Assembly: GCA_964441315.1 (NCBI GenBank)
Contig: CAYTUN010000001.1
Coordinates: 12,807-76,806 of the forward strand
Reading direction: 5' to 3'
DNA: 64,000 nucleotides
Origin: an uncultured Gammaproteobacteria bacterium
Lineage (GTDB): Bacteria; Pseudomonadota; Gammaproteobacteria; CAYTUN01
In this document: positions 59,994 to 64,000 of the stretch, in pieces
Layout of the letters: each line of letters starts with the position of its first letter
How positions within the stretch are numbered: position 1 is the first letter of the stretch
The notes under the pieces: generated by a model
What the model was told of the DNA's origin: nothing
The model's input: only the letters and a program-made list of their open reading frames with translations
Database searches by the model: none
Made by a program: the position numbers and the translations under genes

Positions 59994-60782
59994 CTATTGC
60001 TGCATGGGATCCATATAGGAGCGAATACGATGGCGCCAACCTGGCAGCCAACGCCAGAGCGACATATAAGCCGGTGCTTGCTCGACGCGTCGCGTCAGCA
60101 CCTGATCTGCCGCCCAGCTAAATTGCTGCATACGGGAATAATTTGACGGCGCGTAACGCATCATTTCTAACACCTGTAATAATCCCCAGCCAGTTTGGCT
60201 GCTATAGCCAATGCCTTCGCCTTTGAAATTAATATAATCGGTTAGCGCATAAATGCCGGTTGGCGTTGAAGCAATCCGATTAAACTGATAGCGAATATAG
60301 GGACGTTCTTCAGGCGGGACACTGGCAAGCATGCGTGGTAGCGCACGCTGCATTCTTTCAATCATGTAACGCGCTTGCCAATACATGGTCGCCATGAGAA
60401 ATTGGCGCAAACTCAACATTAATGGGCTATATTGCGAAGCATAAAAATCTTCGCGGCTGATCCAGGGACAATGGGGGATGCTTTCGGTAATCAGCCAATT
60501 AGGAACACGAACGCCATGCGACTGCATATAATGCAATAAATTGGCAAAACCGCCTGCTTCATGCAAATGCGTACCAATGGGATACCAGACAAAATGACCA
60601 ATACCGACAGAGGCAAAATTTTCGCCATCGTTCCAGTCGGTCAAACCTTCTATACTGCCACCGCTTTCGTTATACCAGATTTTTGCCGCAATTCTTAAGG
60701 TTTCAGTCGAAGAAACAGAAACATTTGCCGTAATTTGCAGCGACATGATTAAAAAAAATAAGCAGATTAATTTTTTAATCAT
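59994..60782 (-). CDS. secreted hypothetical protein (signal peptide); weak resemblance to lytic-transglycosylase-type active sites
   Basis: Start moved to the ATG at 60782 (MIKKLICLFFLIMSLQITA signal peptide); motif WYNESGGS…GIGHFVWYP loosely recalls the E-S…GQFMP of MltB-type enzymes; divergent from the ATPase cluster. Confidence 0.45.
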   Translation of the reverse strand: MIKKLICLFFLIMSLQITANVSVSSTETLRIAAKIWYNESGGSIEGLTDWNDGENFASVGIGHFVWYPIGTHLHEAGGFANLLHYMQSHGVRVPNWLITESIPHCPWISREDFYASQYSPLMLSLRQFLMATMYWQARYMIERMQRALPRMLASVPPEERPYIRYQFNRIASTPTGIYALTDYINFKGEGIGYSSQTGWGLLQVLEMMRYAPSNYSRMQQFSWAADQVLTRRVEQAPAYMSLWRWLPGWRHRIRSYMDPMQQ

Positions 60783-60951
60783 AACGGGCTTCCTTAAAAT
60801 GATACAAAGTAATTCTATCCGAGCCAACGCGATCATGAATAGCTGCTAAAGTCGAATATTGCCATCTTCTATCAGCAAACGCTTTTACAGTGGGAACCGG
60901 TGACGTATGATAATCGAAGGCCCTAGAGTTAAAGCAGGTAGTCATAAGATA

Positions 60952-61557
60952 ATGAGTCACACCATACCTGATCATCCATTCTGGTACTTCTCATTAAATG
61001 CCTACGGAGAATTTCAGGTAAGGCAAATTCTGTTTCGTTGGCACCAGGAAAGACAACTGAATTCAAGTCTGGTTTTATTCTGCTGCTGGTATTCGCTCAA
61101 CAACATGGGATCTTTAACGCCAACAGAAATTAAACAATTAATCGATGCGACTGAATCCTGGCATCGGATGATTGTTGAACCTTTGCAAAAATTGCGTGAT
61201 CAAATCATGCAAAACAGCAAATTACAACATTGCATTGGCATCGCTCGCGGCACGGCGCAAGACGCCATGCAAATCGAGACACTAATAATGGCAGGGATTT
61301 TTTTGAAAAAACCTTTGCGCAGCAAACGCAGCCCGGCACAAAAGGCAGTGCAAATGATACGTAGTATCATGATCTACTGCAAAATGATGCAAATTGAATT
61401 TGATTCAAATTTAAATGAAGATATCAATATTTTAACAAACGCTTTTATTGCTGAACTCAACAGCATTGAAATCCGTAATATCAGCCAAACCGTGAAAATC
61501 GAATTGCAAAAACTTAAAATCAAACCTTGGTACCAGCAGTTGACTTTGGCAATTTAA
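60952..61557 (+). CDS. DUF2390 (TIGR02444)-family protein
   Basis: N-terminal HPFWYFSL..YG…V…LNSSLVLFCCW pattern characteristic of TIGR02444; start at the internal ATG 60952. Confidence 0.55.
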   Translation: MSHTIPDHPFWYFSLNAYGEFQVRQILFRWHQERQLNSSLVLFCCWYSLNNMGSLTPTEIKQLIDATESWHRMIVEPLQKLRDQIMQNSKLQHCIGIARGTAQDAMQIETLIMAGIFLKKPLRSKRSPAQKAVQMIRSIMIYCKMMQIEFDSNLNEDINILTNAFIAELNSIEIRNISQTVKIELQKLKIKPWYQQLTLAI

Positions 61558-61683
61558 TGATAATTTAGTTAAAGTAAAGCAAATGAAATTAATAAAGTTT
61601 TTGCCATTAATTAATCTCTTCTTAAGGTTAAATCATTAGACTGCGGCAATATTTAATTCCCCTTTAACAAATCAGGTCGAATT

Positions 61684-63255
61684 ATGGTGACAAAAGACAG
61701 CAATGAAACATTAGAAAAATTCGCGGCTGCCACAAACAAGAAAGTTTTGTGGTCACAAGCGGATTTAGATGTTAAAGATCGCCTGATGACAGAAATGATC
61801 CCTTGGTGCAAACGCCAAGGTGACATCGCCGTATTAGAACGCGGCGACATTCTTGCTTCCAACCCCAGCTCCCGTGCGGTACAAAACTGCAAAATTGTGA
61901 TGATTAACAAGAGCTTACGACCGGGACGCGTGTTAGCCGCAACGCAAAATCTGATTAATATCCTACTGGCCAACGCACCCGATGTAGAGTTTAAAACTCA
62001 CATCAGCAGTAATGAAAACGTTTCAGTTCAGCAACAGCGGCTGCGTAGCTTGGTAAAAGAAGCTTTACAAGTCAAGGCAAGCGATATTCACATTGAAGTA
62101 CGCGGCCCTCGCGCCTGCATCCGCTTTCGCAAACATGGCGAACTATATCTTTATGCGGAGTGGCTACCCAATGTCGCCCGTGAAATTGCCTCGGTTGCCT
62201 TTAACAAAGAAACTGATCATGCCGGTACACACTTCAATCCGATGGTCCCACAAAATGCCTCCATGCCGCTGCATATTGAAGGCCGCGAAGTGCGTTTGCG
62301 TTTAGCTAGTTTGCCGGCGCACACCGGCTTTGACATGGTGATGCGGATACTGGATACCGACAATCAAAGCGTTCCCGATTTGCAAGAATTGGGCTACAGC
62401 CAACGCCAATTTGACTTGATCAAAAAAGCCGTTTTACTGCCTCACGGCGCTATTATTGTCTCTGGCCCCACGGGTTCTGGTAAAACCACAACGCTCGCCA
62501 GCTGCATGAAAATGGTCGATAGTGACCGGAAAATTTACACGATTGAAGACCCTATCGAAAAATTAATCAGCAATGCGACGCAGGTCCCTGTGAATACCGA
62601 CCACGTCGAACGGGATTTCGCCAGCATGGGCCGCTCGGCACTGCGTATGGACCCCGACATCATTGTTCTCGGTGAAATGCGTGACGAAGATACCGCCAGC
62701 GTGATGGTGCGTGCTTCCATCACTGGCCACTTGGTGTTTTCCACGCTGCATACCAACACTGCGACTGCTATTGTGACACGCCTGCATGACATGGGAATTA
62801 GCCTGGGTTTACTTTCAGACCCCAACTTGCTGGCCTGCTTGATCTGCCAACGTTTGGTTCCCAAATTATGCGCAGCTTGCTCGGTCCCCATCGAACAATC
62901 CGCACCACACTTTGAGCGCTTGCCCCATTGGAAAGCTGTGTTTGGCGCCAAAGAACTCAGTAAATTCCGCGCCCGTGGCAGCAGCTGCGATACTTGTAAA
63001 GGCCTGGGCATCAGCGGCCGTACTGTTGTCGCTGAGATCATCTGGGTTGATGAAAGCAGCCGCCATTTTATTCAAAAAGGCGATGTTTTAGGTTGGGAAA
63101 AATATCTGCGCACTCACGGCTGGACCACCTACCGCGATCAGGCTCTAAACCTGGTTAAACAGGGTATCTGTGATATTCTGGACGCTGAAAAAGTCGTCGG
63201 TCAATTTAATCCGGCGAACCTGGAACAAACTTTTGACTACAGCACACTGGATTAA
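61684..63255 (+). CDS. GspE/PilB-family secretion/pilus ATPase with divergent N-terminal domain
   Basis: Walker A GPTGSGKTT, Asp box, Walker B DPDIIVLGEMRD, His box GHLVFSTLHTN, tetracysteine CAAC…CDTC; the N-terminal 120 aa are unlike GSPII_E_N. Confidence 0.85.
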   Translation: MVTKDSNETLEKFAAATNKKVLWSQADLDVKDRLMTEMIPWCKRQGDIAVLERGDILASNPSSRAVQNCKIVMINKSLRPGRVLAATQNLINILLANAPDVEFKTHISSNENVSVQQQRLRSLVKEALQVKASDIHIEVRGPRACIRFRKHGELYLYAEWLPNVAREIASVAFNKETDHAGTHFNPMVPQNASMPLHIEGREVRLRLASLPAHTGFDMVMRILDTDNQSVPDLQELGYSQRQFDLIKKAVLLPHGAIIVSGPTGSGKTTTLASCMKMVDSDRKIYTIEDPIEKLISNATQVPVNTDHVERDFASMGRSALRMDPDIIVLGEMRDEDTASVMVRASITGHLVFSTLHTNTATAIVTRLHDMGISLGLLSDPNLLACLICQRLVPKLCAACSVPIEQSAPHFERLPHWKAVFGAKELSKFRARGSSCDTCKGLGISGRTVVAEIIWVDESSRHFIQKGDVLGWEKYLRTHGWTTYRDQALNLVKQGICDILDAEKVVGQFNPANLEQTFDYSTLD

Positions 63256-63266
63256 AGATACACAAT

Positions 63267-64000
63267 ATGGCTCTTGATCTAGAAACACGCCTTTATAAAT
63301 TATTATTCAGCCGCGCAGAACAGCAATCTTTTTTGGAAGATTTGTGTTTGCTGGTTGAGGATGGCATTCCGGTCAACCAGGCCGTCAGCACAATACACCA
63401 GATTGCAAAAGGCCCACTCAAGCCAATGACTAAACACTTACTAGAGCAGATTGCTCAAGGACGCAATGTGGCCGATGGCTTGATTGGCTGGTTTCCTCCG
63501 ACCACCGTGGAGATCATTCGCGCCGGTGAGGAAGGTGGCAAATTAGTTGAAACCATACAAAACGCGTCCAAGGCGCTTGCGGTACGCGGCAACATTCTAA
63601 GCTCCTTGCTGGGATCATTACTTTATCCTACTGCCGTTTTATTACTCGCGTTTGCAGTCACCGTGTTTATCCGCAATTCTGTTTTTGTTAACTTTACTCA
63701 GATTCGTCCACTAGAAGAATGGCCCACTGCAGGAAAGCTGCTTTATCACTGGGCAACTTTTTTACAAGATTGGTGGTGGCTGATTTTATTGTTTATTCTG
63801 CTGATAGTTATATTGACAGTCGAAGTCTTACGTAATGTCACTGGCCCGGCTCGGCAATTGATTGATCGCATTCCCCTTTTATCACTGTATCGTTTAAACG
63901 CCGCAGCTCGCTTGATGGAAACTTTAGGGCTATTGATTTCCAATGGATTGGCTTTTAAAAAATCACTTTCCTTGTTACAAACAAGCGCTAGCCGTTATTT
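63267..64000 (+). CDS. GspF/PilC-like inner-membrane platform protein (partial, runs off the window)
   Basis: Not in the ORF track because it has no stop inside the window; ATG 12 nt after the ATPase stop; T2SSF-domain pattern (…VEIIRAGEEGGKL…) followed by TM helices. Confidence 0.7.
   Translation, partial: MALDLETRLYKLLFSRAEQQSFLEDLCLLVEDGIPVNQAVSTIHQIAKGPLKPMTKHLLEQIAQGRNVADGLIGWFPPTTVEIIRAGEEGGKLVETIQNASKALAVRGNILSSLLGSLLYPTAVLLLAFAVTVFIRNSVFVNFTQIRPLEEWPTAGKLLYHWATFLQDWWWLILLFILLIVILTVEVLRNVTGPARQLIDRIPLLSLYRLNAAARLMETLGLLISNGLAFKKSLSLLQTSASRY

Follow-up and report, generated by a model that had tools for sequence, protein, structure and literature searches.

The analysis of a 64,000-nucleotide stretch of DNA from an uncultured Gammaproteobacteria bacterium (the window) located, at positions 61684-64000, the promoter-proximal end of what is probably (we put the probability at about 0.75) a chromosomal type IV filament operon of the type IVb class, conserved among Coxiellaceae-like Gammaproteobacteria. 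It opens with the genes for the ATPase and the platform, occurs in Coxiella-like bacteria and can be recognised as belonging to a known family of machines. Judged from sequence, the ATPase tree, the platform protein and the secretin and PilO-like protein of the relatives lie nearest to type IVb pili (R64 thin pilus, BFP) and not to type II secretion systems (T2SS) or type IVa pili. The original prediction had proposed either a type IVb-pilus-like or an uncharacterised GspE/GspF-driven export system, and it is the former reading that these four lines of evidence favour. A check of the open reading frames of the window found the four genes where they had been predicted:

59994-60782, minus strand: secreted protein (f7) of the lysozyme superfamily by predicted fold, 262 aa from the ATG at 60782
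59994-60836, minus strand: full f7 open reading frame, 280 aa
60907-61557, plus strand: DUF2390 protein, 216 aa, PF09523
61684-63255, plus strand: ATPase, 523 aa, T2SSE, putative type IVb-class pilus extension ATPase of the PilQ(R64)/BfpD class
61684-61983, plus strand: N-terminal domain of the ATPase (aa 1-100), putative sequence-divergent N1E/GSPII (MshEN-like) fold
62464-62997, plus strand: whole span of the ATPase catalytic signatures
62464-62493, plus strand: Walker A (ATPase aa 261-270)
62536-62559, plus strand: Asp box (ATPase aa 285-292)
62650-62685, plus strand: Walker B (ATPase aa 323-334)
62725-62757, plus strand: His box (ATPase aa 348-358)
62869-62880 and 62986-62997, plus strand: tetracysteine site (CxxC at ATPase aa 396-399 and 435-438)
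63267-64000, plus strand: platform protein of the BfpE/PilR/TcpE type, first 244 codons with no stop, T2SSF at residues 22-135

The platform gene is incomplete because the window ends within it. The earlier statement that no pilin, secretin or prepilin peptidase is visible was borne out by tblastn searches of the whole 64 kb, which detected no PilO-like gene either. Since the window stops 244 codons into the platform gene, the pilins and the secretin of the operon are inferred from relatives at 58-70% ATPase identity to the window copy.

The ATPase, a hexameric-type member of the GspE/PilB superfamily, matched T2SSE with 310 bits. Its catalytic site is complete: a motif check located all of the predicted elements (Walker A and B, Asp and His boxes, tetracysteine site), and the four Cys residues of the latter are kept in at least 90% of 125 homologues. 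No NCBIfam equivalog cut-off was reached and all scores fell far short, with 286.7 bits for GspE (TIGR02533, cut-off 630.25) and 258.2 bits for PilB (TIGR02538, cut-off 675.65). The top raw HMM and PDB scores of the catalytic part were to GspE/EpsE (287 and 221 bits). Along its full length (530 aligned positions, N-domain included) the protein is 32% identical to the PilQ-like ATPase of Aeromonas pAC1520. The phylogeny that had been proposed as a check placed the ATPase family with the type IVb ATPases BfpD, IncI-gamma PilQ, IncI2 PilQ and pAC1520 PilQ, with a bootstrap value of 98% on all columns and 94% on the catalytic part, in a neighbour-joining tree (300 bootstraps) built with few references and without TcpT, CofH, MshE and bona fide PilB. 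A grouping with GspE, HofB and a planctomycete GspE-like protein occurred in 0% of the replicates.

The first residues of the ATPase had been described as unlike the standard N1 domain. At the level of sequence this holds, as residues 1-118 gave no sequence match in Pfam, NCBIfam or PDB; for the fold the claim probably does not hold, since it reads as the standard N1E/GSPII fold (putative) in divergent form and not as a novelty.

The same data bear on the conventional reading of the two genes, as part of a regular type IVa operon (pilB-pilC-pilD-coaE) or as gspE and gspF of a canonical T2SS. The two proteins are indeed members of the T2SSE and T2SSF superfamilies, with GspE and GspF as the best HMM names, but the scores stay under half of the equivalog cut-offs and the replicates of the tree side with the type IVb ATPases. 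Moreover, pilin genes follow the platform gene in 20 related loci, and no A24 peptidase was found in these loci or in the window (tblastn with IncI2 PilU and BfpP). Contradicted by the scores, the gene order of the relatives and the ATPase tree, this reading is highly improbable, and the original prediction was right to set the module apart from the ordinary type IVa operon. The resemblance to that operon consists in an extension ATPase gene followed by a platform gene and in the G|FTLIE motif of the minor pilins of the relatives. The ATPase here, unlike its type IVa counterpart, has by inspection neither the long MshEN-repeat N-terminus nor the RLGxx c-di-GMP motif; the platform gene of the relatives is followed by pilins and not by pilD-coaE, and PilM/N/O/P and PilT were not found in the loci. 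With the T2SS the ATPase shares its domain plan (a putative N1-fold domain, N2 and CTD with the tetracysteine Zn site), although the tree sets the family apart from GspE, the platform here does not have the N-terminal extension of GspF (roughly 55 residues), and the secretins of the relatives scarcely match GspD.

The platform gene encodes a short inner-membrane protein of the BfpE/PilR type. Platform proteins of type IVb systems (BfpE/TcpE/PilR type) have about 340-370 aa and no PilC/GspF N-terminal extension. In tblastn comparisons the window platform matched BfpE with 73 bits, colinear from BfpE residue 1, PilR(IncI2) with 58 bits, and HofC with 38 bits in an alignment that begins at HofC residue 64. 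The complete platform proteins of the relatives have 343-363 aa (GspF 398, HofC 400) and matched BfpE with 110-115 bits and PilR with 76-90 bits, compared with 51-58 bits for GspF and 57-66 bits for HofC. The missing N-terminal extension pointed out in the original prediction is thus real, but as a novelty it falls away, since its absence is normal for type IVb systems.

In the relatives the platform gene is followed by the gene of a major pilin of 144-170 aa with a G|I(S/G)LLE (G|ISLLE type) cleavage site and then by those of 2-5 minor pilins with a G|F(T/S)L(I/L)E site. The apparent leader of the major pilin has about 7-23 aa, its +1 residue is Ile in 16 lineages, and it weakly resembles Bundlin (E about 0.003) and PilS. 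Classical type IVb pilins have a leader of about 13-30 aa, a mature length of about 180-200 aa and a residue other than Phe at +1; the small, short-leadered pilins of the relatives are unlike them. Several lineages carry, after the pilins, genes for a lipoprotein secretin of the PilN/BfpB type, a PilO(R64)-like protein and a PilP-like membrane protein, in this order. Four of the secretins (L005, L007, L009 and L026) have lipobox-like N-termini, that is, lipoprotein signal sequences, and scored 219-252 bits against the 'PilN family type IVB' model (TIGR02520, cut-off 288), with 100-115 bits for MshL, 56-61 for GspD (TIGR02517) and 42-63 for PilQ. Compared with single proteins, the secretins of the relatives gave 99-135 bits with BfpB and PilN and at most 37 bits with GspD. 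The protein of 405-416 aa that follows the secretin aligned with the protein in the PilO position of pAC1520 (hhalign, 95.6%), while it had no match in Pfam or NCBIfam and no tblastn match to IncI2 PilO2 or BfpC. The PilP-like protein bears a weak PilP signature (TIGR03021, 23.8 bits, below the cut-off of 34.65) and a C-terminal SPOR domain; hhalign against pAC1520 PilP was negative. None of the components reached an NCBIfam equivalog cut-off. The Peptidase_A24 Pfam family was missing from the gene tables of the related loci, and in the MacSyFinder T4bP model the prepilin peptidase may be a loner (TFF classification, PMC6668835).

By analogy with BFP, TCP and R64, the ATPase would use its N-terminal domain to dock onto the PilO-like protein (analogous to GspL/BfpC) at the part of the latter that lies in the cytoplasm, and ATP hydrolysis would turn or move the platform so that processed pilins are lifted from the inner membrane into the fibre. 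The fibre would leave the cell via the secretin, and the SPOR domain may fix the assembly to peptidoglycan. The prepilins would have to be processed by a peptidase encoded elsewhere. The output of such a machine is likely an adhesive or colonisation pilus, possibly combined with export of a soluble or giant partner protein.

The R64/IncI thin pilus clusters, to which the pil cluster of Aeromonas caviae pAC1520 and those of IncI2 plasmids belong, have the order pilN-pilO-pilP-pilQ-pilR-pilS. They share with the operon an ATPase homologous along the full length, N-domain included, a short platform, a lipoprotein secretin for which the PilN family model is the best by a factor of two, a secretin followed first by a PilO-like protein and then by one that weakly matches the PilP signature, and a major pilin with weak similarity to PilS. 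In contrast to R64, the gene order is permuted, with ATPase, platform and pilins ahead of secretin, PilO and PilP, and the locus is chromosomal and lies amid housekeeping genes, whereas the R64 type resides on a conjugative plasmid. The loci have no PilL/M, PilT lytic transglycosylase, PilU peptidase, PilV or shufflon, the relatives have a smaller pilin whose leader is short and whose +1 residue is Ile, their PilP-like protein carries a fused SPOR domain, and every score lies under the NCBIfam cut-offs. The bundle-forming pilus of EPEC is encoded in the order bfpA-G-B-C-U-D-E-F-P-H-I-J-K-L. It resembles the operon in that BfpD falls into one clade with the ATPase, BfpE (352 aa) is the closest platform protein, the secretin is a lipoprotein similar to BfpB, and several minor pilins accompany a major pilin with a residue other than Phe at +1. 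It differs in its BfpF retraction ATPase, BfpP peptidase and BfpH transglycosylase, which were not detected by tblastn, in BfpC and BfpG, which had no tblastn match, and in the weakness of the similarity to Bundlin.

The small, GspG-sized major pilin with its short leader and several minor pilins behind it would also suit a device that is chiefly secretory, in which a short pseudopilus-like fibre exports a substrate and does not serve as an adhesive pilus. Precedents for substrate export are the T2SS and the TCP and Cof pili, which export TcpF and CofJ. No retraction ATPase was found in any related locus (tblastn), in many relatives the pilin genes are flanked or followed by giant open reading frames of 900-1843 aa that contain no Pfam domain, and the catalytic part of the ATPase scores highest to GspE. 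The secretin, the platform, the ATPase tree and the PilO-like protein are, however, all of the type IVb kind, and GspC/L/M/N signatures were not found. We regard a chiefly secretory role as unlikely; since it differs in output and not in machine class, it is compatible with the type IVb operon reading.

The relatives also bear on whether the cluster of this genome is partial or decaying, comprising ATPase, platform and pilins without a secretin module of its own. In L001, the closest complete relative, the 10 kb downstream contain neither a secretin gene nor one for a PilO-like or PilP-like protein, and L011 is almost the same as L001 in the overlap that was compared. In L022 and L025 only 1-2 pilin genes precede genes on the opposite strand, in L012, L038 and L045 foreign genes stand between those for the ATPase and the platform, and the DUF2390 and pilin open reading frames of L001 are broken. 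The frameshifts in L001 may nevertheless have arisen in the assembly, since L011, which is almost identical, is intact; every catalytic residue of the window ATPase is kept and its family is strongly conserved (58-71% identity), and an organisation over several loci is accepted for type IVb systems (PMC6668835). A partial or decaying remnant is rather improbable; the pilus system of this genome may be spread across several loci, or be incomplete.

The DUF2390 gene lies 126 bp upstream of the ATPase gene on the same strand. Its product scored 47.9 bits against PF09523 (cut-off 25) and 31.9 bits against TIGR02444, under the cut-off of 48.3, and is a divergent member of the family. A promoter-like site at 60884-60911 overlaps the first ATG of the open reading frame, and the true start is probably the ATG at 60952, giving 201 aa. 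By inspection the protein has no signal peptide. Searches found no literature on the family and no PDB relative. The co-occurrence of DUF2390 with the ATPase, raised in the original prediction, was found in part: a homologue directly adjoins the ATPase gene upstream in 10 of the 23 distinct related loci (about 40%), with gaps of -1 to 274 bp, and is missing from the others or, in L038, displaced. DUF2390 could be a dedicated cytoplasmic cofactor of the ATPase, for example by binding the divergent N1 domain as PilZ/FimX do with PilB or GspL with GspE, and the module would then be a variant of the type IVb kind to which a new accessory has been added. The adjacency is consistent with this, the gene being immediately 5' of the ATPase gene on the same strand with gaps down to -1 and 5 bp, and it is kept at DUF2390 identities down to 21-29%. 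The positive loci are spread across the ATPase tree, the displaced copy is still less than 2 kb away, and there is no terminator-like site between the two genes. Against a dedicated cofactor, 13 loci with intact-looking operons lack the gene, the L038 copy is inverted with two genes in between, and TIGR02444 genes on three alphaproteobacterial plasmids adjoin UbiX/UbiD with no T2SSE gene nearby. The housekeeping gene pgi and an unrelated gene (f8) are syntenic in the same lineages, pgi to a comparable degree, and the neighbourhood is therefore partly frozen ancestry. Because of the synteny of pgi, the inversion in L038 and the UbiX/UbiD contexts, an accessory role of DUF2390 is a candidate only, and we consider a dedicated cofactor rather unlikely. 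The DUF2390 gene and the lysozyme-like gene, the second of them transcribed divergently, are long-standing neighbours of the putative type IVb operon and candidate participants at most.

The latter gene encodes the secreted protein on the opposite strand. Its true start is likely the ATG at 60782, in agreement with the public gene call P0130 (262 aa), from which the protein begins MIKKLICLFFLIMSLQITA, a signal-peptide-like N-terminus. The WYNESGG...GIGHFVWYP residues are largely invariant in the family. We compared the protein with GH46 chitosanases, the muramidase domain of VgrG3, T4 lysozyme and SLT-type transglycosylases such as R64 PilT and BfpH. Its sequence matched none of the Pfam, NCBIfam or PDB families, SLT and MltB included, and showed no tblastn similarity to PilT(IncI2) or BfpH. 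The predicted fold is lysozyme/GH46-like with two invariant Glu residues, and the nearest folds are those of GH46 chitosanase, VgrG3 (muramidase domain) and T4 lysozyme, not MltB. The resemblance to MltB suggested at first was right at the level of the superfamily, since the predicted fold is lysozyme-like, but not as regards MltB itself; an assignment as an MltB/SLT-type lytic transglycosylase was rejected, there being no SLT/SLT_2 sequence membership. Enzymes of that type combine a lysozyme-like fold with one catalytic Glu. The family is widespread in phyla with no sign of this pilus cluster, and it has members in Chthoniobacterales and Elusimicrobia. At one locus, L037, a member of the family is paired with a YkuD transpeptidase.

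The 3' end of the window (59994-64000) contains exactly the four open reading frames of the original prediction, which had described them as a non-canonical secretion or pilus module:

59994-60836, minus strand, secreted protein (280-aa ORF)
60907-61557, plus strand, DUF2390 protein (PF09523, 47.9 bits against a cut-off of 25)
61684-63255, plus strand, ATPase of 523 aa (T2SSE, 310 bits)
63267-64000, plus strand, platform gene (244 stop-free codons, T2SSF domain at residues 22-135)

The ATPase carries a Walker A motif (aa 261-270), an Asp box (285-292), a Walker B motif (323-334), a His box (348-358) and two CxxC pairs (396-399 and 435-438), whose four Cys were kept in at least 90% of 125 homologues. 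GC content was 0.50-0.51 across the ATPase gene (window 62000-63500) versus 0.35-0.42 in the 10 kb upstream. The true start of the secreted protein is likely the ATG at 60782, from which the product has 262 aa, begins MIKKLICLFFLIMSLQITA and shows a signal-peptide-like N-terminus; the public gene call of this protein (P0130), also 262 aa, agrees. The DUF2390 protein scored 31.9 bits with TIGR02444, under the cut-off of 48.3. Since the best promoter-like site of the region (60884-60911, 10/12 matches) extends over the first ATG of the DUF2390 ORF, that gene probably starts at the ATG at 60952, which gives 201 aa, the length of the homologue in the related locus L045.

The ATPase family comprised more than 120 clusters, mostly metagenomic, with full-length identities of 58-71%, and its named members were Coxiellaceae MAGs. 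The window ends inside the platform gene, and the genes downstream were read from relatives: 23 distinct related loci were gathered and their genes mapped. The recurring order was ATPase, platform (343-363 aa), major pilin (144-170 aa, processed at G|I(S/G)LLE in 16 lineages), two to five minor pilins of larger size carrying G|F(T/S)L(I/L)E and then, in some loci, a secretin module. The alternative against which the original prediction had been set, a pilB-pilC-pilD-coaE operon, was not what the relatives showed, as pilin genes and not pilD-coaE follow the platform gene. In four loci (L005, L007, L009 and L026) the module comprised a secretin (approximately 510-540 aa) whose N-terminus is of lipoprotein type, a protein of 405-416 aa without Pfam domain and a bitopic SPOR protein. 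The last of these, the final conserved gene of the cluster, has a long low-complexity middle and a C-terminal peptidoglycan-binding SPOR domain, with a weak GspB (T2SSB) match in L005:

L009, 17563-19113, SPOR protein
L007, 17636-19654, SPOR protein
L005, 19954-21009, SPOR protein
L026, 16054-17832, SPOR protein

The secretin module was absent within 10 kb in the closest complete relative, L001, where a Pfam search of the ORFs following the pilin genes gave no match. Neither the window nor 20 related loci contained an A24 prepilin peptidase, a PilT-like ATPase or an SLT-type transglycosylase.

Sequence comparison places the region at the start of a type IVb-class pilus operon, uncharacterised but classifiable; five lines favour this class, namely the secretin, the platform, the PilO-like protein, the ATPase and the pilin. 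The best model for the relatives' secretins was TIGR02520 ('PilN family type IVB pilus formation outer membrane protein') with 219-252 bits, compared with 100-115 for MshL, 56-61 for GspD and 42-63 for PilQ. With tblastn the same secretins gave 99-135 bits with BfpB and IncI2 PilN and at most 37 bits with E. coli GspD, and their identity to the PilN-like secretin of pAC1520, an Aeromonas plasmid with an R64-like pil cluster, was 27-30% over almost the entire length. The relatives' platforms scored 110-115 bits with BfpE and 76-90 with PilR versus 51-58 with GspF and 57-66 with HofC, and the partial platform of the window aligned to BfpE from residue 1 (73 bits) and to HofC only from residue 64. 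The protein encoded after the secretin matched the protein that occupies the PilO position in pAC1520, over the C-terminal half of the latter (hhalign 95.6%); a PDB profile search with the PilO-like protein gave chance-level matches only. The SPOR protein showed a sub-threshold PilP signature (TIGR03021) and was negative in hhalign with pAC1520 PilP; the major pilin had weak Bundlin and PilS matches.

The window ATPase was 32% identical over 530 positions, N-domain included, to the PilQ-like ATPase of pAC1520. In 94-98% of the replicates of a bootstrapped NJ tree its family grouped with BfpD, two IncI PilQs and the pAC1520 ATPase, which supports the 'type IVb-pilus-like' option of the original prediction, and in none with GspE or HofB. 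An ordinary pilBCD operon or a T2SS was rejected on this tree, on the gene order of the relatives and on the NCBIfam equivalog scores of the ATPase (GspE 287/630 bits, PilB 258/676 bits; no cut-off reached). The cluster matches the T4bP class of Denise et al. 2019 (PMC6668835), in whose T4bP model the peptidase may be a loner and a system may span several loci.

Compared with textbook type IVb systems, the relatives have small pilins with short leaders, a permuted order (Q-R-S... ahead of N-O-P), a PilP-SPOR fusion and neither a peptidase nor a transglycosylase encoded in the locus. The locus is also chromosomal and lies among housekeeping genes, which in the window are ahpC, sodB and pgi (ORF inspection), with a PGI Pfam match in relatives. 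The two features of the core that had been flagged, a divergent ATPase N-terminus and a short platform, do not make the machine unusual. The N-terminus is indeed divergent at the sequence level: residues 1-118 had no sequence relative in Pfam or PDB, a PDB profile search giving only chance-level matches. Of 1.84 billion proteins, the N-domain profile found only 42 representatives, roughly a dozen being full-length ATPases; with so few relatives, the domain is family-specific in sequence. A c-di-GMP-binding MshEN N-terminus was rejected, as the RLGxx motif is absent. The short platform is the BfpE/PilR organisation and the norm there. Overall, what had been flagged as non-canonical is either usual for the class or an unproven association.

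Domain content, catalytic motifs, folds and homology of the parts come from the analysis itself, and the remainder of the following scheme is drawn by analogy with BFP, TCP, R64 and the T2SS. The hexameric ATPase would dock via its N1-fold domain on the cytoplasmic domain of the PilO-like protein and drive the BfpE-type platform, which would pull pilins, once processed by the peptidase, into a fibre that the minor pilins would prime. This fibre would pass out through the PilN-type secretin, and the SPOR domain would tie the inner-membrane subcomplex to peptidoglycan. As the locus lacks a retraction ATPase, it probably produces a static adhesive fibre, or else a TCP/Cof-like one that also exports a partner.

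Many relatives carried giant ORFs of 900-1843 aa, either upstream of the cluster in divergent orientation or immediately following the minor pilin genes:

L007, 6991-9759, minus strand, giant ORF
L009, 4284-9695, minus strand, giant ORF
L018, 11982-16159, giant ORF
L027, 6436-11475, giant ORF
L028, 7080-10684, giant ORF
L031, 14781-20309, giant ORF

Those of L007 and L009 had no Pfam domain recorded or detected. The giant ORFs are possibly adhesins or exported partners, and the Pfam-less ones beside many clusters are candidate export partners.

The original prediction had proposed the DUF2390 protein as a novel accessory of the machine. A DUF2390 homologue lies directly upstream of the ATPase gene on the same strand in 10 of the 23 distinct loci with readable upstream sequence (positive loci: the window, L011/L001, L002-L005, L022, L025 and L045), with gaps of -1 to 274 bp. 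The 126-bp gap of the window lacks any terminator-like site, and its promoter-like site is weak. The positive loci are scattered over the ATPase tree and the DUF2390 proteins are only 21-29% identical, and the adjacency is therefore old. Against a required role, DUF2390 is absent from 13 loci with intact-looking operons, and L038 has it two genes away on the other strand. Moreover, several of the same lineages also keep the synteny of pgi, which to our knowledge has no plausible link to pili, and of f8, an unrelated gene for a 180-200-aa protein (window 56574-57110); in this clade, conservation of the neighbourhood therefore does not specifically point to function. Dinoroseobacter, Sphingobium and Neorhizobium plasmids carry TIGR02444 genes beside UbiX/UbiD-type decarboxylase genes and have no T2SSE gene near them. 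A PDB profile search revealed no relative of DUF2390, a word-based homologue search returned 3 proteins, and the literature held nothing on DUF2390, TIGR02444 or COG5589. We consider a true accessory role doubtful. Still less probable is the fuller proposal that the Coxiellaceae-type DUF2390 subfamily may act as the ATPase family's dedicated cytoplasmic partner, docking on the sequence-unique N1 domain of the ATPase. If true, the partnership would give DUF2390/COG5589 its first function and mark out a type IVb subtype centred on Legionellales, characterised by a G|ISLLE pilin and a PilP-SPOR fusion and possibly exporting the giant proteins encoded next to it.

On these three plasmids, all alphaproteobacterial, the TIGR02444/DUF2390 gene was found near UbiD-type or non-oxidative hydroxyarylic acid decarboxylase genes (L034 6022-7072, L035 5971-10025, L036 5980-7096), in two of the three directly beside a UbiX flavin prenyltransferase gene. 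This UbiX/UbiD context is recurring and unrelated to pili. The f8 gene (178-207 aa, no Pfam domain) shows synteny with the pilus cluster, preceding DUF2390 in L003, L004 and L005 and, in L027, standing immediately before the ATPase gene:

Window, 56574-57110, minus strand, f8, beyond pgi
L003, 975-1562, f8
L005, 8716-9312, f8
L027, 402-983, f8

The secreted protein had been tentatively proposed as a peptidoglycan-remodelling enzyme serving the machine. The enzymatic part of this proposal held at the level of the lysozyme superfamily. A confident AF2 model (pLDDT 91.5) showed a lysozyme-superfamily fold, predicted to be lysozyme/GH46-like, with two invariant Glu: Glu39, in the WYNES motif, ends the first long helix of the model, and Glu54 lies 15 residues further on, near the first short beta-strand. 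This two-carboxylate layout appears to recall the GH46 and T4 lysozyme hydrolases and not the single-Glu lytic transglycosylases. In L037 (Chthoniobacterales; 6001-7532) a YkuD L,D-transpeptidase gene comes after the family gene, a context that fits a cell-wall role. A YkuD gene also occupies the equivalent divergent position in L005.

For a link to the pilus the comparisons gave no support. The family is strongly conserved (834 hits at 43-56% identity) and occurs in Coxiellaceae, Chthoniobacterales and Elusimicrobia, far beyond the system, and its gene is near the ATPase gene in one subclade only (the window, L001/L011, L023, L038, L045 and, tentatively, two short contigs). As the operon's PilT/BfpH-type transglycosylase it was rejected on this spread and on the lack of sequence similarity to IncI2 PilT and BfpH. 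No Pfam or NCBIfam model covered the family, and a PDB profile search gave only chance-level matches; the 120 best hits listed had no Pfam domain, the named ones being 'hypothetical', and a Pfam scan of 35 members at E <= 10 returned nothing consistent.

Type IVb pili are organelles of colonisation and secretion, studied mostly from enteric pathogens and plasmids. The locus is a conserved chromosomal relative in Coxiellaceae-like bacteria and encodes a candidate host-interaction organelle for the group. It also offers a compact natural variant for comparison, with its permuted order, short-leader Ile+1 pilin and SPOR-anchored PilP-like protein. The practical value is annotation; public records label these genes GspE, PilB, TadA or hypothetical. 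Two by-products may outweigh the operon, namely a widespread unannotated family of lysozyme-fold secreted proteins and the first context data for DUF2390.

In the complete Coxiellaceae SSA3 chromosome (L001, CP058706.1), DUF2390 and several pilin genes are fragmented (9152-9785 and 13266-15620). L011 has intact versions of the genes split in L001, and one protein compared between the two loci was 98-100% identical; the fragments are either assembly frameshifts or recent pseudogenisation. Foreign genes between the ATPase and platform genes were found as follows:

L038, 8556-12088, amylase-like 535-aa protein and 636-aa ankyrin-repeat protein
L012, 11720-12196, 158-aa protein with weak coiled-coil-type Pfam matches only
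L045, 11616-11873, 85-aa ORF

A 194-bp palindromic MITE/REP-like element lies at window 59768-59961, with a DUF155 gene on one side and the secreted-protein gene (3' end) on the other. It has arms of 53 nt that are separated by 88 nt and show 94% complementarity. The window contains 8 copies of the 30-nt arm core versus 0 expected by chance (16506, 16774, 27181, 33194, 50411, 50559, 59777 and 59923), partly as facing pairs.
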